Shown here one piece after another: positions 8,719 through 17,312 of a DNA stretch of 50,378 nucleotides. Every line of letters starts with the position of its first letter. Within the stretch, counting starts at the first letter, position 1. The stretch comes from a virus. Taxonomy: Duplodnaviria; Heunggongvirae; Uroviricota; Caudoviricetes. The notes under the pieces are model-generated. The model searched no databases and had not been told where the DNA came from. It worked only from the letters and a program-made list of their open reading frames with translations. Both the position numbers and the translations under genes were made by a program. The stretch covers positions 1 through 50,378 of IMG/VR virus record IMGVR_UViG_2562617057_000009; one strand, given 5' to 3'.

Positions 8719-9432
8719 ATGGCAGTGAACACCGCAATTTTTAACGACAAAGTATCCATGACCAGCGTTGAAATCGCAGAGTTGGTGGGTAAACGTCATG
8801 ACAATGTGAAACGCACTATTGAAACATTAGCCAAAGGTGGCGTTGTCCGGTCTCCTCAAATTGAGGTTTCCGAAAGAATCAATAACTTAGGTTTTAAAGT
8901 TCAATATGAGCATTACCTGTTTGAAGGAGAGCAAGGTAAGCGCGACAGTATCATTGTCGTCGCACAGCTCTGTCCTGAATTTACTGCTCGCCTGGTAGAT
9001 CGCTGGCGCGAACTGGAAGAACAGATCCGTAAGCCAATGAGCGAAATCGAAATGGTTGCCGCGATGGCTCTTGAAGCAGTTCGTCAGCAAAAACGCCTCG
9101 ACAAGATGGAAGAAAAAGTCAGCCATGTTGCCGAAACAGTTGAGCAAATCAAAAAGGGTACCATTCGTGAGGGCTATGCCGGATATCGCCAGCTGAAAGC
9201 AAAAACCGGTATGTCAGATGCGAAATGTCGCAATCTGGTGAACGCATATCAGATCCCTACCGATACCCATGAATTTATGACGCCGGATGGATTGTTATCT
9301 CGTCGCGCGATTGTTGCTGTGGAACCGTTTATGGCTGCTTTTTATCGGGTTATGGAGGAAGCAGAACCGCGAGGGACTCGCTGGTATCACCCGAAAATGG
9401 GGTTATTTCAGGTTATTGGTTGGCAGAAATAA
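8719..9432 (+). CDS. Rha-family phage regulatory protein / antirepressor
   Basis: N-terminal Rha-like motif (SVEIAELVGKRHDNVKR); AAGGAG before the ATG at 8719; C-terminal domain shared with 2738-3487. Confidence 0.7.
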   Translation: MAVNTAIFNDKVSMTSVEIAELVGKRHDNVKRTIETLAKGGVVRSPQIEVSERINNLGFKVQYEHYLFEGEQGKRDSIIVVAQLCPEFTARLVDRWRELEEQIRKPMSEIEMVAAMALEAVRQQKRLDKMEEKVSHVAETVEQIKKGTIREGYAGYRQLKAKTGMSDAKCRNLVNAYQIPTDTHEFMTPDGLLSRRAIVAVEPFMAAFYRVMEEAEPRGTRWYHPKMGLFQVIGWQK

Positions 9433-9484: not shown

Positions 9485-10309
9485 GTGAAAAACAATATCA
9501 AAGTTTTCGATTTTAAATCAAGCACTGGTGAATTGTTGTCATCAGTTCGTAGTGTGGTCATTGATTCAACACCATGGTTTTTTGCCGTGGATATATGTAA
9601 CGCGCTGGGGCTGACAAATACTGCTATCTCCCTTCAGTCCATCGATGATGAAGATAAAACCGAATATAAGGATTACTTAGGTTCGGGACGTAAGCCTTTG
9701 CTGGTCAATGAATCCGGGCTCTATGCGCTGATTATCAAAAGTCGAAAAAAACAGGCAAGACGTTTTAAACGGTGGATTACATCGGAGGTAATTCCCTCAA
9801 TTCGTAAAACGGGGAATTACTGTCTTACCACAATGGCATCCCTACCAGATTTTAGCGATCCGGCTGCTGCTGCCCGTGCCTGGGCGGACGAATATGAGGC
9901 TAAAAACAGAGCAATTAGTTACGTTCATCGTCAGGCCCAATACATCGAACATCTGGAAAATTTATTCCAGCCTGGCATGACACCGGTTCAGTTCTGCAAG
10001 CAACTTAATGGAGTAAATGTTCAGCGCATCACAGCATTTCTGGAGGCTCACAACTGGCTTTATGACGAGCGTCCTGAATCGCGAAGCCCCGCATGGCGTG
10101 TAAAGGCATATGCCCGAGATCTGTATCTGACCGAACGTCACCACTATATCGATTCAGGTTATGAAGAAGGGTTTTATTCGTACACACCAGTTCTTCTCCA
10201 GAAAGGGGCGGTCTGGATTTATCGCCAGTATCTTAGAGGTGCATTACCCATGAAGAGAAACTGGAATGGCGAATTTACTCACGATAAAGAACTGGCGGGT
10301 GCTGCATGA
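9485..10309 (+). CDS. Bro-N / KilAC-type antirepressor
   Basis: Bro-N-like N-terminus (WFFAVDICNALGLTN) and antirepressor-like C-terminal half; GTG start after GGAGA. Confidence 0.7.
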   Translation: MKNNIKVFDFKSSTGELLSSVRSVVIDSTPWFFAVDICNALGLTNTAISLQSIDDEDKTEYKDYLGSGRKPLLVNESGLYALIIKSRKKQARRFKRWITSEVIPSIRKTGNYCLTTMASLPDFSDPAAAARAWADEYEAKNRAISYVHRQAQYIEHLENLFQPGMTPVQFCKQLNGVNVQRITAFLEAHNWLYDERPESRSPAWRVKAYARDLYLTERHHYIDSGYEEGFYSYTPVLLQKGAVWIYRQYLRGALPMKRNWNGEFTHDKELAGAA

Positions 10310-10965
10310 TTGTTCTCCAAGATATTGATTCTGCAATTTCGGGACGTTACACTGTCTCTGCCCCTTATAAAGCGGGGGCCGGGATTGGAACCCCGGAATT
10401 GATCGAGGCGATATACGACGCGCCAGCGTCTTTTTTATCGTCCGCGCTCACGCACGCCAGAATTATGGTGGGCTGGGCAGGGGAGCCGAAAGGCTCGCCG
10501 GTTTCCTTGATCGCCGGTAGTTCCAACCCTGTTCAGTCCGCCACCAGCGAGCTTGGAACCTCCGGTGGTGGAAGTTTTTCACCGATCAAGGAGGCTGCCA
10601 TCATGGCTACGATCCCAGTTTCCCCATTCCTCAAAATCGAAGTCGTCAACGGCAAGGCCGTTATTTTCTCTTTGCATGTAGCCTGCCATTTCAAGCGCAT
10701 GCACCAGAACATCGTCGACAAAATCGAGTATCTGAACTGCTCGCGCGAATTTTTTACCCGCAATTTCATACCGGGTACTTACCACATCTATGACGACTCT
10801 CTGCGTGGTTATTACATCACCCTTGATGGTCTGATGCTGCTTCAGCTTGGGTTAAGTCTGCGCACAATGCGGTACTACGAGAGTTGCATTGAAGCGTTCC
10901 ATGAGGCTGAAACCGTCCAGGTGCATTCCGCTTTCCGTCGTCATCAACGGGAGGTGCACCTATGA
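10306..10965 (+). CDS. module 1: Rha-like domain protein; the 5' ~300 nt of the ORF is a structured leader (alternative start ATG 10603 after AAGGAGG gives a 120-aa protein)
   Basis: C-terminal 120 aa are Rha-like; ORF start overlaps the upstream stop (ATGA). Confidence 0.55.
   Translation: MIVLQDIDSAISGRYTVSAPYKAGAGIGTPELIEAIYDAPASFLSSALTHARIMVGWAGEPKGSPVSLIAGSSNPVQSATSELGTSGGGSFSPIKEAAIMATIPVSPFLKIEVVNGKAVIFSLHVACHFKRMHQNIVDKIEYLNCSREFFTRNFIPGTYHIYDDSLRGYYITLDGLMLLQLGLSLRTMRYYESCIEAFHEAETVQVHSAFRRHQREVHL
10356..10602 (+). ncRNA. candidate c4/ImmI-like antisense regulatory element, copy 1
   Basis: Hairpin gcccc/ggggc (10360-10379), hairpin plus U-tract 10417-10436, GAAA-tetraloop hairpin 10480-10499, loop CCTTGATCG complementary to the SD region CGATCAAGG (10583-10591), GTTCCAA complementary to TTGGAAC at 10385 and 10553. 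Confidence 0.5.
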
Positions 10966-11621
10966 TCCGCTACCTGAATATTGATTCTGCAATTTCGGGA
11001 CGTTACACTGTCTCCGCACCTTATAAAGCGGGTGCCGGGATTTGCACCCCGGAATTGTCAACGGCGATATACGACGCGCCAGCGTCTTTTTTATCGTCCG
11101 CGCTCACGCACGCCAGAATTATGGTGGGCTGGGCAGGGGAGCCGAAAGGCTCGCCGGTCTCCGTTGACGCCGGTAGTGCAAACCCTGTTCAGTCCGCCAC
11201 CAGCGAGATTTGCACCTCCGGTGGTGGAAGTTTTCCACAGTCAACGGAGGCTGCCATCATGGCTACAGTCCCAACCCACTCATTCCTCAAAATTGAGACC
11301 GTCAACGGCAAGGCCGTTATTTTCTCTTTGCATGTGGCCTGCCACTTTAAGCGCATGCACCAGAACATCGTCGACAAAATCGAGTATCTGAACTGCTCGC
11401 GCGAATTTTTTACCCGCAATTTCATACCGGGTACTTACCACATCTATGACGACTCTCTGCGTGGTTATTACATCACCCTTGATGGTCTGATGCTGCTTCA
11501 GCTTGGGTTAAGTCTGCGCACAATGCGGTACTACGAGAGTTGCATTGAAGCGTTCCATGAGGCTGAAACCGTCCAGGTGCATTCCGCTTTCCGTCGTCAT
11601 CAACGGGAGGTGCACCTATGA
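10962..11621 (+). CDS. module 2: Rha-like domain protein (alternative start ATG 11259)
   Basis: Paralog of module 1; GGGAGGTG precedes the ATG, which overlaps the upstream stop. Confidence 0.55.
   Translation: MIRYLNIDSAISGRYTVSAPYKAGAGICTPELSTAIYDAPASFLSSALTHARIMVGWAGEPKGSPVSVDAGSANPVQSATSEICTSGGGSFPQSTEAAIMATVPTHSFLKIETVNGKAVIFSLHVACHFKRMHQNIVDKIEYLNCSREFFTRNFIPGTYHIYDDSLRGYYITLDGLMLLQLGLSLRTMRYYESCIEAFHEAETVQVHSAFRRHQREVHL
11012..11258 (+). ncRNA. candidate c4/ImmI-like antisense regulatory element, copy 2 (different specificity)
   Basis: Same architecture with compensatory changes: gcacc/ggtgc, TTTGCAC/GTGCAAA, CCGTTGACG versus GTCAACGG at the SD. Confidence 0.5.
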
Positions 11622-12478
11622 TCCGCTACCTGAATATTGATTCTGCAATTCCGGGACGTTACACTGTCTCTGCACCTTATAAAGCGGGTGCCGGGATTGG
11701 CGTCCTGAAATTCAATATAGAGCATAACCGCGCTCATGCGGTTTTTTCGTGTCATGAGCATTGCTACGCCCAAATTATGGTGGGGCGTGCAGGGGCATCG
11801 CAAGATGCGCCGGGTTCTATGTTGACCGGTTACGCCAACCCTGTACGTCTCACCACCTCTGTGATTGGCGTCCCATGTGGTGAGTTCTTTGAATTCAACA
11901 TAGGGGCTGTCACCATGACTACTCTCCCAACCCTCTCTCAACCTGAAATTGCCATCGTTGATGGTCAGGCTGTTACTTCATCCCTGGCTGTTGCCAACTT
12001 CTTCTCTAAACGTCATGACGATGTTCTGAAAAAGATCCGCATTTTGGATTGTTCTCCAGAGTTTTGTGCCCGCAATTTTGCGGAGACATCAATTTTGGTA
12101 CGCCAGCCCAACGGCGGTACTCGCAAACTTCCCTGCTACCAAATCACCCGCGACGGCTTCGCCTTCCTTGCTATGGGCTTCACTGGTAAACGTGCCGCCC
12201 GGTTCAAAGAGGCATACATCAATGCCTTTAACCAGATGGAGAGGAGCTTATCAGGAGCTGGTGCGGCTGACATGTCATCTGTCGCACAAAACGCCAGAGG
12301 CGTATACCTGCATTTGCGTGAAATCCATCAAATCTGGACAAGCCAGCTTTACCCAATGCTTAAGGCCGTTGAATCTCCGCTGGCTGGCAAACTGTACGAC
12401 CGTGTAGGTGATGCTGTTTTTGGTGCTGCACTTGTTGATTCCAGGCTGAATGGTTCTGACAAGGAGGTGCGCCCATGA
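11618..12478 (+). CDS. module 3: full Rha-family regulatory protein (alternative start ATG 11915)
   Basis: Rha-like motif (VTSSLAVANFFSKRHDDVLKKIR); diverged leader of the same design. Confidence 0.6.
   Translation: MIRYLNIDSAIPGRYTVSAPYKAGAGIGVLKFNIEHNRAHAVFSCHEHCYAQIMVGRAGASQDAPGSMLTGYANPVRLTTSVIGVPCGEFFEFNIGAVTMTTLPTLSQPEIAIVDGQAVTSSLAVANFFSKRHDDVLKKIRILDCSPEFCARNFAETSILVRQPNGGTRKLPCYQITRDGFAFLAMGFTGKRAARFKEAYINAFNQMERSLSGAGAADMSSVAQNARGVYLHLREIHQIWTSQLYPMLKAVESPLAGKLYDRVGDAVFGAALVDSRLNGSDKEVRP
11667..11914 (+). ncRNA. candidate c4/ImmI-like antisense regulatory element, copy 3 (third specificity)
   Basis: Terminator-like hairpin aaccgc/gcggtt plus U-run at 11726-11749, GCAA-tetraloop hairpin, TTGGCGT/ACGCCAA pairing, loop CTATGTTGA complementary to TCAACATAG next to the SD. 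Confidence 0.45.
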
Positions 12479-12708
12479 TCCGCCACATCGTTAATTTCCT
12501 GTATCACCGATACAACCATTGCCCCCGTGTGGGGCAGTGGTTCACCACCAGCAACGGCTACGTTCTGCGGGTTTGCCTGGTCAGTACCGAAAGCCAGAAG
12601 GTTGTCTGCCAGGTTCAGGGACGTACTCATACCCTGAGTTATCCGCTGGTGGCGTTTCAGTCCGGAAAAATGTTTAAACGCCTGGGAGGTGGCTATGCGT
12701 CCGTCTGA
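12475..12708 (+). CDS. hypothetical 77-aa protein in the cII-equivalent position
   Basis: AAGGAGGTG before the ATG, which overlaps the upstream stop. Confidence 0.4.
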   Translation: MIRHIVNFLYHRYNHCPRVGQWFTTSNGYVLRVCLVSTESQKVVCQVQGRTHTLSYPLVAFQSGKMFKRLGGGYASV

Positions 12709-13603
12709 TCTTCTGCTCGATTTTGGACATCCGGTTGCTTATTACCCTGGGCTCGTTAAATACATGGGAAGTCCGCACGCTGTTATTTTCTTTGGTCAGA
12801 TTTTTTACTGGCAGGATAAAGCACATGCAGCGGAAGGCGTACATAAAACGCGTGAAGAGATACAACACGAAACCGGACTTACATTTGAACAACAGGCTGT
12901 AGCGCGTAAGCATCTTGTGTCCAGAGGCATTTTGGTTGAAACCAACAAGCGTCTTGAGCACAAAATGTTCTACCGTATAGATTGTGAGCGCCTTAATGAA
13001 ATTATCAATGAAAACAATCAGTTTTCCCGAAATGGGGAAACCCGTTTTCGGGAAACTGTAAAACCCAATTTCGCGGAGGAGGGAAAGCCTTCACCGCGGA
13101 CACGGGAAACCCCTCGCCGCGGAGAAGGGAAAACCAATTTCGATCTTACAGAGAATACAACAGAGATTACTTCAGAGAATACTACAGAGAGTAAAAACAC
13201 TATTGGCGCATCCGCTGACGCGTCTGCACCAGCGCGTTCTTCCCGACAGGAATATTCACCGGAATTTGAACAGGCCTGGCAGGAATATCCAAAACGTGCT
13301 GGTGGTAACTCAAAATCCGCAGCCTTCAAAGCCTGGAAAGCCCGGCTCAGGGAGGGAATAAAACCTGAAGCCATGCTTGATGGCGTGAAACGCTATGCTG
13401 CCTGGGTACGTGCCACAGGAAATACCGGCACACAGTTCGTGAAGCAGGCTGCGACGTTCTTTGGACCCGATCGTCACTTCGAAGACTTCTGGCAACAGCC
13501 AGCCGCTCCCGGAGGTGGGCGACAGCGACAGGTCGATGTCCTGGCTGGCCTGGGAGCCATGTCTGACAAATTCGGTAAATCCAGTGACAAACTGACATTC
13601 TGA
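12695..13603 (+). CDS. phage replication initiation protein (O-like, DnaT-like C-terminus)
   Basis: Sits directly upstream of the DnaC-like and DnaB-like genes; internal iteron cluster. Confidence 0.65.
   Translation: MRPSDLLLDFGHPVAYYPGLVKYMGSPHAVIFFGQIFYWQDKAHAAEGVHKTREEIQHETGLTFEQQAVARKHLVSRGILVETNKRLEHKMFYRIDCERLNEIINENNQFSRNGETRFRETVKPNFAEEGKPSPRTRETPRRGEGKTNFDLTENTTEITSENTTESKNTIGASADASAPARSSRQEYSPEFEQAWQEYPKRAGGNSKSAAFKAWKARLREGIKPEAMLDGVKRYAAWVRATGNTGTQFVKQAATFFGPDRHFEDFWQQPAAPGGGRQRQVDVLAGLGAMSDKFGKSSDKLTF
13020..13195. repeat. putative replication origin iterons (GGGAAAC x4-5, then ACAGAGA-type repeats) inside the initiator gene
   Basis: Spaced direct repeats in the linker region of the initiator gene, as lambda ori lies inside O. 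Confidence 0.45.
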
Positions 13604-17001: not shown

Positions 17002-17078
17002 GGCCCTTTAGCTCAGTTGGTCAGAGCGAGCGACTCATAATCGCCAGGTCGCTGGTTCAAGTCCAGCAAGGGCCACCA
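17002..17078 (+). tRNA. ileZ: tRNA-Ile2-like (anticodon CAU, ileX/ileZ type)
   Basis: Cloverleaf with anticodon loop CTCATAA and 3' CCA; close to E. coli ileX as recalled. Confidence 0.75.
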
Positions 17079-17079
17079 A

Positions 17080-17156
17080 CCACCACTAGCTCATCCGGAT
17101 AGAGCATCAACCTTCTAAGTTGACGGTGCGAGGTTCGAGTCCTCGGTGGTGGGCCA
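17080..17156 (+). tRNA. argN: tRNA-Arg (anticodon UCU)
   Basis: Perfect 7-bp acceptor stem ccaccac/gtggtgg, anticodon loop CTTCTAA, CCA end. Confidence 0.75.
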
Positions 17157-17158
17157 GC

Positions 17159-17234
<76 letters not shown>

Positions 17235-17237
17235 TAT

Positions 17238-17312
<75 letters not shown>

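Follow-up and report, generated by a model that had tools for sequence, protein, structure and literature searches.

The window, by which we mean the whole 50,378-nt stretch of viral DNA that was analysed, contains three modules in a lambdoid early-right operon, downstream of cro-like, Rha and Bro-N genes and 5' of the replication genes. Each module opens with a leader of about 300 nt. The preliminary description had reported that these leaders are open in three ORFs of 219, 219 and 286 codons, and the ORF listing confirmed the coordinates. The chain extends into the replication genes as follows:

10306-10965, plus strand: long ORF 1 (219 aa), eta-like, with an Ash region and a nested Rha-like part
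10962-11621, plus strand: long ORF 2 (219 aa), SD GGGAGGTG, ATGA shared with the ORF 1 stop
11618-12478, plus strand: long ORF 3 (286 aa), SD GGGAGGTG, ATGA shared with the ORF 2 stop
12475-12708, plus strand: 77-aa ORF, SD AAGGAGGTG, ATGA shared with the ORF 3 stop
12695-13603, plus strand: replication-initiator-like gene, SD GGGAGGTGG (PGAP: LvrA C-terminal domain-related)

The SD-ATGA chain put forward in the preliminary description is present at 10306, where ORF 1 overlaps the stop of the Bro-N gene, and at 10962, 11618 and 12475. It needs correcting in two places: the SD at 10306 is weak (GGCGGGTG at most) and the last junction is not an ATGA but a 14-nt overlap, with ATG 12695 lying inside the 77-aa ORF, whose stop is at 12706-12708. 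A profile search gave no family match for the 77-aa ORF (12475-12708), and the ORF listing gives 12689 as an alternative start for the replication-initiator-like gene, with the end at 13603. Of the six frames of the leader, that of the long ORF alone is open in every module; the other two sense frames contain 2-7 stops, and a given frame stays open in 1.2-2.5% of mononucleotide shuffles, per module. Modules 1 and 2 are recent duplicates with leaders that are 89% identical; module 3 is a partly independent sample because its leader identity is just 66%.

The Rha-like protein proper begins at an internal ATG in each long ORF (10603, 11259 and 11915):

10603-10965, plus strand: nested Rha-like ORF 1 (120 aa, MATIPVSPF...), the gene in the kil/icd position
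11259-11621, plus strand: nested Rha-like ORF 2 (120 aa)
11915-12478, plus strand: nested Rha-family ORF 3 (187 aa)

Position 2 of the TIGR02681 profile aligns to residue 9 of nested ORF 1, and in the homologue alignment the protein-coding substitution signature sets in at the internal ATG. Module 3 scores 93.3 bits with PF09669 (cutoff 29.9) and 90-91 bits with TIGR02681 (cutoff 45.95); modules 1 and 2 score 27.3 and 27.2 bits with the former and 36.6 bits with the latter, below both cutoffs.

RNA genes inside the leaders

Each leader encodes an isrK/c4-a1b1 RNA and then a C4 antisense RNA, and in every module both score higher than the gathering cutoffs of Rfam:

10326-10354, plus strand: promoter-like site of module 1 (TTGATT, 17 nt, TACACT), read from the sequence
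10982-11010 and 11638-11666, plus strand: equivalent copies of that site in modules 2 and 3
10360-10436, plus strand: isrK/c4-a1b1 RNA of module 1 (Rfam RF01394, 62.8 bits); a1 TTGGAAC 10385-10391 and b1 10400-10408 by complementarity, intrinsic terminator 10417-10436 by terminator scan
10461-10548, plus strand: C4 antisense RNA of module 1 (Rfam RF01695, 84.6 bits); 5' ATG 10465, b' loop 10502-10513, a' about 10519-10526
10553-10594, plus strand: C4 targets of module 1; a2 10553-10559 (7-nt complementarity to a'), b2 10583-10594 (12-nt complementarity to the b' loop)
11016-11092, plus strand: isrK/c4-a1b1 RNA of module 2; a1 11041-11047, b1 11056-11064, terminator 11073-11092
11117-11204, plus strand: C4 RNA of module 2; ATG 11121, b' 11158-11169
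11209-11215 and 11240-11250, plus strand: C4 targets a2 and b2 of module 2
11672-11748, plus strand: isrK/c4-a1b1 RNA of module 3; a1 11697-11703, b1 11712-11723, terminator 11726-11748
11773-11860, plus strand: C4 RNA of module 3; ATG 11777, b' 11814-11825
11865-11871 and 11895-11905, plus strand: C4 targets a2 and b2 of module 3

The promoter-like site of module 1 lies 20 nt 3' of ATG 10306 and stops 6 nt short of the 5' end of isrK. It scores under the threshold of a generic promoter scan; the pattern TTGnnn-17/18-TAnnnT occupies a fixed position just 5' of the isrK +1 in 140 homologous leaders. Across the modules b2 is complementary to the b' loop over 11-12 nt and covers the SD of the internal ATG; in module 1 it includes AAGGAGG (10588-10594), the SD of the start at 10603. 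The a1/b1, a'/b' and a2/b2 pairings are consistent within each module and different among all three.

Constraint on the frame and on the peptide

Translated in the frame of the long ORF, the leader matches Pfam PF10554 (Ash, or Phage_ASH) over residues 15-106 of each ORF, with 60.8, 55.2 and 47.4 bits for ORFs 1 to 3 (cutoff 26; E values from 2e-16 to 3e-12). PF10554, the NCBI 'ash family protein', is catalogued as a protein domain whose function is unassigned. The Ash DNA is the isrK and C4 RNA cassette, so that the 'Ash' domain of Pfam and PGAP and the isrK and C4 RNAs of Rfam are two annotation layers over the same DNA, reconciled here. The comparison of synonymous and nonsynonymous changes that the preliminary description had suggested was run on 213 homologues and gave no sign of selection on the peptide: in-frame pN/pS is 0.84 in the C4 part and 0.68 in the isrK part of the leader, with 0.86-0.98 out of frame (0.96 and 0.86 are the out-of-frame values that go with 0.84). 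Over the first 50 codons past the internal ATG, the values are 0.19 in frame and 1.41 and 1.88 out of frame. Column entropy in the leader alignment has no 3-periodicity, and the differences between the window's own modules fall evenly on the three codon positions (13/9/13 and 34/37/33). The leader peptide, unlike the nested gene, is under no amino-acid-level constraint; judged by pN/pS, PF10554 is not a protein domain under purifying selection, and the earlier suggestion of a functional Ala/Ser/Gly-rich N-terminal extension finds neither amino-acid constraint nor codon periodicity behind it. Nor is an RNA that is both structured and coding as unusual as had been supposed, the arrangement being a Pfam family (PF10554) with a published mechanism.

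The stop codons tell of the frame. The 213 unique leaders are phylogenetically related sequences, and depletion of stops was assessed by nearest-neighbour contrasts and out-of-frame controls in place of a full phylogenetic model. These contrasts gave 2 stop changes in the leader frame against 31 expected, about 15-fold under expectation, with 70 against 36 and 95 against 42 in the other two frames, which stand at about twice expectation and in which stops come and go freely. Upstream of C4 the leader frame had no stop changes against 11.7 expected, and further nearest-neighbour contrasts gave 27 against 13.7 and 24 against 11.2 expected in the other frames. Single substitutions that the RNA would tolerate and that lead to a stop are similarly available in all three frames (7.6, 8.7 and 10.9 per sequence, leader frame first), and the stops realised are 0.12, 1.14 and 2.53 per sequence in the same order. 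The long-ORF frame is stop-free in 163 of the 213 leaders, the other frames in 28 and 1, and stop counts per leader are bimodal, being either zero or 2.5 on average. The isrK-to-C4 length classes are mostly multiples of 3 (84, 87, 90, 96, 108, 111 and 126; the exceptions are 85 and 91). As a matter of sequence arrangement, 116 of the 153 open homologous leaders have an ATGA start, and in 70 of them that start is the exact place where an upstream ORF of 60 codons or more terminates. Together with the pN/pS values, these numbers are quantitative evidence that the frame is selected as open and the peptide is not.

The preliminary description would have regarded the long ORFs as incidental if homologous leaders carried stops with the RNAs intact. 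Such leaders do occur: 50 of the 213, P1-type and Gifsy-1 leaders among them, have in-frame stops and an intact C4 stem, yet the frame is still depleted of stops overall. Because these leaders are closed, the RNA system works without the long ORF. They show the ORF to be dispensable for the RNAs, not that it is incidental in the window lineage, where the sequence record points to a long frame that is kept stop-free.

Counterparts in P4, P1 and Gifsy-1

The closest precedent is the eta/kil gene pair of satellite phage P4 (Forti et al. 1999, J Bacteriol 181:5225, as summarised in PMC10111431). According to that summary, eta is a long ORF that is coupled to the gene upstream, has seqA, the CI RNA and a promoter within it and nests a shorter gene, and its translation prevents transcription termination. 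Re-derivation from the P4 sequence gave an ORF of 199 aa that begins at ATGATGATG, where it overlaps the stop of ORF88. This ORF encloses isrK/seqA (8615-8692) and C4/CI (8420-8507); nested in it, kil (65 aa, MATTLTPSHPEF) follows CAGGAGGCTGCCATCATGG, a context near-identical to window positions 10588-10606. The window long ORFs likewise overlap the preceding gene through ATGA; their frame spans a promoter-like site, seqA/isrK-like and CI/C4-like RNAs and the seqC/a2b2 equivalent, where b2 covers the nested gene's RBS; and the nested gene has its own SD-ATG in frame, starts MAT... like kil and shares the near-identical GGAGGCTGCCATCATGG context. The Pfam Ash match falls on the equivalent segment in both; in P4 this is the ORF formerly named the cI protein, at the site of the C4/CI RNA gene. 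The differences are that the nested product in the window is a Rha-family protein of the winged-helix type (120, 120 and 187 aa), whereas that of P4 is the 65-aa Kil; that the unit is present three times head to tail with three a/b specificities; and that it lies in a lambdoid early-right operon before replication genes and not in a satellite left operon. The window ORFs appear to be new copies of the eta/kil design already described, in which the frame around a small-RNA immunity cassette seems to be preserved so that it is translated and not because of its peptide; eta function is attributed to them by analogy.

The immI region of P1 and P7 (c4, icd, ant) resembles the window in having a C4 RNA with a' and b' loops, flanked by a1/b1 targets on its upstream side and a2/b2 targets on its downstream side; b2 covers the RBS of the gene that is translated first. 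The N-terminus of P1 Icd (MATVPTPTHPEF) is homologous to the MATIPVSPF of the window and was compared with it and with that of P4 Kil. It is here that the comparison of leader translation with P1 icd, drawn in the preliminary description, was misplaced: what matches icd/kil is the nested Rha ORF at its own N-terminus, and the leader ORF corresponds to P4 eta. P1 has one module, the window three. In P1 a separate 73-aa icd overlaps ant and no ORF crosses c4; in the window nothing separates the MATIP N-terminus from the Rha-like domain, and an ORF does run across C4. In the P1-like phage RCS47, stops interrupt the Ash frame both before and after C4, and a long ORF is therefore absent.

Gifsy-1 isrK-orf45-anrP (Hershko-Shalev et al. 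2016, PMC4825925) provides an IsrK sRNA that has a terminator and a promoter of its own, where the window has a promoter-like site, and then a C4-like element. That element is translated: orf45 starts at the C4 5' AUG, its product was seen by western blot of a SPA-tagged form, and it is required for translation of anrP (PMC4825925). As in the window, the nucleotide sequence is conserved and not the peptide, and there is AUGA coupling, in Gifsy-1 to an antirepressor-like gene. However, orf45 is short (45 codons) and ends at the AUGA, whereas in the window the corresponding AUG at 10465 lies 46 codons 5' of the internal ATG and its ORF is fused in frame to the Rha-like ORF; a b' hairpin shorter by 4 nt shifts orf45 out of frame relative to the window. 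The Gifsy-1 frame upstream of C4 is closed, and therefore there is no eta-like long form. In VT2-Sakai, the end of the 57-codon orf34 overlaps the start of ant by 4 nt at the same place.

A probable nested gene pair and its alternatives

We think it probable that each long ORF is a nested gene pair of the P4 eta/kil type built around an RNA immunity cassette; translatability would be what is selected and the leader peptide a by-product. Transcripts from a module's own promoter, which would lack the long-ORF start, would yield the nested Rha-like protein only, and then only in the absence of C4 RNA occluding b2 and the SD. On read-through transcripts from the early operon (cro-like, Rha, Bro-N), ribosomes would reinitiate at the ATGA and translate across the IsrK terminator, the C4 element and the a2/b2 operator. 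By analogy with what is reported for P4 eta, this translation would suppress the terminator and Rho action and bypass C4 control, and each long ORF would pass ribosomes on to the next ATGA. Such a hand-over would link the three modules, each with a specificity of its own, and the 77-aa ORF in one chain that reaches the replication genes. More tentatively, and with somewhat less than even confidence, we suggest that the three eta-like ORFs form a translation-driven relay and that the Pfam 'Ash domain' is an RNA-gene cassette kept open for translation, not a protein domain. Ribosomes would enter the relay either by way of the early operon or from an upstream module that has been derepressed and, by termination and reinitiation, pass three IsrK terminators and three C4 checkpoints of distinct specificities; the relay would license the 77-aa ORF and the replication genes whatever the RNA immunity state, and the peptide of the cassette would evolve neutrally in a frame open purely for translation.

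It is unlikely that the long ORFs are incidental and untranslated, with the RNA genes free of stops in one frame by accident, Ash a spurious family that gene callers and Pfam built on conserved RNA, only the nested Rha ORFs expressed and the 138 nt from the C4 ATG to the downstream ATG a multiple of 3 by chance. The lack of amino-acid constraint would fit, as would the closed frames with intact RNAs in P1-type, Gifsy-1 and other leaders (the 50 noted above); the conserved stops of frames 1 and 2 stem from RNA motifs such as CCGGTAG and TATAAAG, and resampling of alignment columns keeps the frame open in 42-71% of cases. This account does not explain why stop gains are depleted in the leader frame only, why stop counts are bimodal and isrK-C4 lengths nearly all multiples of 3, or why ATGA coupling is enriched, and leader translation has precedents in Gifsy-1 orf45 (PMC4825925) and, in the summary cited, P4 eta. 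The earlier interpretation is partly supported: the stop depletion, the recurrent ATGA arrangement and these precedents favour translation across the leader, and the role it gave to the protein finds no support.

We also consider it improbable that the key translation starts at the C4 5' AUG (10465, 11121 and 11777) on own-promoter transcripts, as in orf45, adding 46 residues to the Rha-like protein or opening a2/b2 for the internal ATG, and that the part upstream of C4 is irrelevant. Gifsy-1 orf45 uses exactly that AUG, VT2-Sakai orf34 overlaps the ant start at the equivalent place, and the ATG is nearly universal at that position in homologues; but its conservation says little because it belongs to the C4 5' consensus (AUGG), no SD precedes any of the three ATGs, and neither the absence of stop changes upstream of C4 nor ATGA starts 5' of the internal promoter-like site would be explained. 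Such a start can coexist with the eta/kil-type explanation. That Ash is a genuine domain and the long proteins (219 and 286 aa) two-domain regulators with a functional N-terminal domain seems to us very hard to credit. The PF10554 match exceeds its threshold, Ash occurs in in-frame fusions with a wide range of partners, C-terminal as well as N-terminal, and the literature handles it as a 'Bro network' domain. However, its in-frame pN/pS equals that of the out-of-frame controls, its third codon position shows no bias, its conservation tracks RNA helices and loops, its P4 match is to an RNA gene, and downstream homologues (P1 Icd, loci of the L017 type) function without it.

The principle behind the eta/kil-type explanation is not new, since the mechanism was established in P4 in 1999 according to the summary in PMC10111431. 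For the prophage of the window it predicts that each Rha-like regulator is made in two forms, a long one from read-through transcripts and a short, C4-controlled one. A polarity link between the anti-repressor modules and the replication genes is predicted as well, and Shiga-toxin-phage-like elements would allow this to be tested directly. The evidence on the frame bears on the annotation of hundreds of 'ash family proteins' in prophages and satellites and on how domain architectures of the Bro/Rha/Ant network are read. At the identical locus of E. coli O121 (NZ_CP119441), PGAP draws CDS boundaries exactly as in the window ORFs and names ORFs 1 and 2 'ash family protein' and the third a 'Rha family phage regulatory protein'.

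Reading frames and RNA elements of the three modules

The three long ORFs lie where the preliminary description had placed them, with the 77-aa ORF and the gene resembling a replication initiator downstream:

7968-8234, cro-like gene (early operon)
8725-9432, Rha family gene (early operon)
9485-10309, Bro-N gene (early operon)
10306-10965, ORF 1, 219 aa
10962-11621, ORF 2, 219 aa
11618-12478, ORF 3, 286 aa
10360-10436, plus strand, isrK RNA, module 1 (Rfam, above gathering score)
11016-11092, plus strand, isrK RNA, module 2 (likewise)
11672-11748, plus strand, isrK RNA, module 3 (likewise)
10461-10548, plus strand, C4 antisense RNA, module 1 (Rfam, above gathering score)
11117-11204, plus strand, C4 antisense RNA, module 2 (likewise)
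11773-11860, plus strand, C4 antisense RNA, module 3 (likewise)
12475-12708, plus strand, 77-aa ORF
from 12695, plus strand, replication-initiator-like gene

The accompanying proposal, that a Shine-Dalgarno sequence and an overlapping ATGA couple the whole chain, is correct only in part. ATGA is present at 10306, 10962, 11618 and 12475, but the last junction is a 14-nt overlap; GGGAGGTG or AAGGAGGTG lies 5 nt upstream of 10962, 11618 and 12475, but 10306 has only GGCGGGTG. The leader frame is the only one open in all three of the ~298-nt leaders, the other sense frames having 2-7 stops, and a given frame was open in 1.2-2.5% of trials with shuffled leaders. Modules 1 and 2 are near-duplicates and the module 3 leader is 66% identical. 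E. coli O121 (NZ_CP119441) has an identical copy of the locus with exactly these CDS, named by PGAP as 'ash family protein' (two) and 'Rha family phage regulatory protein' (one). A minus-strand ORF of 113 aa is also open across the module 3 leader (window 11600-11941); it is probably incidental because modules 1 and 2 have no equivalent.

Residues 15-106 of the translated leader match Pfam PF10554 (Ash), and what the present analysis adds is to equate this domain explicitly with the cassette of isrK and C4. Towards their C terminus the ORFs match Rha, strongly in module 3 and below the cutoff in modules 1 and 2, and the Rha family profile starts at residues 9-12 when numbering begins at the internal ATG. 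A PDB sequence search with ORF 3 gave no match.

The isrK segments also match the 'c4-a1b1' target motif. In each module the b1 site inside isrK is complementary to the b' loop of that module's C4, the b2 site downstream of C4 is complementary to the b' loop over 11-12 nt and includes the Shine-Dalgarno sequence of the internal ATG that starts the nested Rha-like ORF (10603, 11259, 11915), and both a1 and a2 are complementary to the a' segment. The recognition sequences differ from module to module (b' is TTTCCTTGATCG, TCTCCGTTGACG or GTTCTATGTTGA) and each matches its own b1/b2 and a1/a2, so that the modules, which span 10360-11905, look from their pairing sequences like three tandem heteroimmune switches of the immI type. 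A terminator-like hairpin and then a T-run close each isrK at its 3' side, and TTGATT-17-TACACT stands upstream; 140 distinct homologous leaders have TTGnnn-17/18-TAnnnT at this same distance from isrK +1. Promoter-like sites were judged by this positional conservation instead of a generic promoter scan, in which the putative isrK promoters, matching 8 of 12 positions, fell below the threshold of 9. Another terminator-like hairpin (AACGGCAAGGCCGTT then ATTTTCTCTT) is found within nested Rha-like ORFs 1 and 2 (10648-10672 and 11304-11328), in the coding part some 45 nt past the internal ATG.

Selection on the leader frame

Homologous leaders were collected with a frame-neutral DNA pattern derived from the C4 core, in IMG/VR and GTDB (one genome per species), yielding 213 unique sequences in which the outer C4 stem is intact. 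Quantitative tests were limited to those with 138-nt spacing because the automatic, complementarity-based choice of 'downstream ATG' is imperfect at some loci. The comparison of synonymous with nonsynonymous change that the preliminary description had proposed shows that the leader peptide is without amino-acid constraint. In nearest-neighbour contrasts, pN/pS between the C4 ATG and the internal ATG was 0.84 in frame versus 0.96 and 0.86 out of frame; the segment between isrK and C4 gave 0.68 versus 0.86 and 0.98, and the first 50 codons past the internal ATG gave 0.19 versus 1.41 and 1.88. In 97 open leaders aligned with MAFFT, column entropy by codon position had no 3-periodicity. When the window's three modules are compared with one another, all codon positions differ about equally often (13/9/13, 34/37/33, 32/35/31), and synonymous pairs are few among the codons that differ.

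Between isrK +1 and the internal ATG the leader frame is free of stops in 163 of the 213 leaders, versus 28 and 1 for the other two frames; the 50 broken leaders have a mean of 2.5 stops each. Sorting leaders as 'open' or 'closed' and scoring multiple-of-3 indels are partly circular, so we replaced these measures with stop tests that are not conditioned on openness. Along the nearest-neighbour contrasts the leader frame gained or lost a stop 2 times against 31 expected in the C4 part and 0 times against 11.7 in the isrK part, whereas control frames had 70 against 36, 95 against 42, 27 against 13.7 and 24 against 11.2, and the count for the true coding region was 0 against 25. The RNAs tolerate about equal numbers of stop-creating substitutions in each frame (7.6, 8.7 and 10.9 per sequence), and realised stops per sequence were 0.12 in the leader frame and 1.14 and 2.53 in the others. 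These data are evidence that selection acts on the openness of the frame, not on the peptide. The coupling arrangement is conserved as well: ATGA is found at the first in-frame ATG in 116 of 153 open leaders, and in 70 of these 116 that is also exactly where an upstream ORF of 60 or more codons ends. Tandem arrays of such units recur among homologues, one example being the three modules of locus L026.

At some homologous loci (L006 and L035, with 481-aa ORFs, L012, L020, L031 and L050) an icd-like gene in a different frame is crossed by 80-100 codons of open Ash frame, as if an eta-like ORF overprinted icd; beyond this stretch the Ash frame of L006 and L035 fuses in frame with the next gene. 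In L028 (800-aa ORF) and L083 (464-aa ORF) the Ash region is preceded by very long frame-0 ORFs that do not resemble protein sequence, and their repeated peptides (e.g. TTKPGSALTLTGLLT...MA..THP) suggest further translated RNA-like cassettes upstream.

Comparison with P1, Gifsy-1 and P4

The long ORF is dispensable for the RNA system, since isrK, C4, b2/SD and icd (MATVPTPTHPEF) are all present in P1-like RCS47, where stops flank C4 on either side, and IMG/VR loci such as L017, L025 and L065 are of the same type. The ORF arrangement described here is not P1-like. The orf45 of Gifsy-1 begins at the AUG at the 5' end of C4, and its stop overlaps the anrP start as AUGA; published work has demonstrated that it is translated and that anrP translation depends on it, and its nucleotide sequence is conserved but its amino-acid sequence is not (PMC4825925). 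VT2-Sakai has a similar 57-codon ORF (orf34) with a 4-nt overlap with the ant start. The b' hairpin of the Gifsy-1 C4-like element (L245, 34130-34215, minus strand) is 4 nt shorter than that of the window, and orf45 therefore reads the C4 3' half out of the Ash frame, a difference that illustrates how translation is conserved and the peptide is not. The orf45 stop is not matched by our locus.

All the sequence-level defining features of P4 eta/kil that we tested are shared with this locus. In P4, the match to Pfam Ash (4e-16) falls on the ORF whose historical annotation is 'cI gene product'. The C4/CI RNA (8420-8507) lies within that ORF, and isrK/seqA is at 8615-8692. The full frame is a 199-aa ORF that starts at ATGATGATG, overlapping the ORF88 stop, and nests a 65-aa gene (MATTLTPSHPEF...) behind CAGGAGGCTGCCATCATGG; these are eta and kil. 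As Forti et al. (1999) are related in PMC10111431, a constitutive promoter, CI and seqA lie inside eta, truncated Eta is Kil, and full-length Eta is translated only from an upstream late promoter, its translation preventing termination. The anatomy and the selection pattern of the present locus are shown here; by analogy with P4, it would also function in the same way. It departs from P4 in three respects: it nests a Rha-like product, it has three copies of the unit with differing specificities, and it belongs to a lambdoid prophage. A specialist in phage regulation would find the design familiar; the quantitative pattern or the proposed three-module relay may be unexpected.

In such a scheme, transcripts from a module's own promoter would lack the start of the long ORF and could give rise to no more than the nested Rha-like protein, controlled by C4 at b2/SD. 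Transcripts entering from the early operon would carry the ATGA start, and ribosomes reinitiating there would translate across the IsrK terminator, C4 and a2/b2, preventing intrinsic and Rho-dependent termination and overriding C4, before continuing into the next module and in the end reaching the 77-aa ORF and the genes for replication. The peptide encoded by the leader is apparently a by-product.

Other features of the window

Two more anti-repressor-type genes, of the Rha family (8725-9432) and Bro-N type (9485-10309), precede the modules in the same operon without an RNA leader, so that five consecutive Rha/Bro-type genes separate the cro-like gene from the replication genes. Within the replication-initiator-like gene, three overlapping 21-nt units with 12-nt spacing (13149-13193; CAGAGAATACAACAGAGATTA) are iteron-like and may mark an origin. 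Rfam matches elsewhere were:

17002-17309, cluster of four tRNA genes
30624-30803, CssrB sRNA (230 bits)
31560-31763, IS009 RNA
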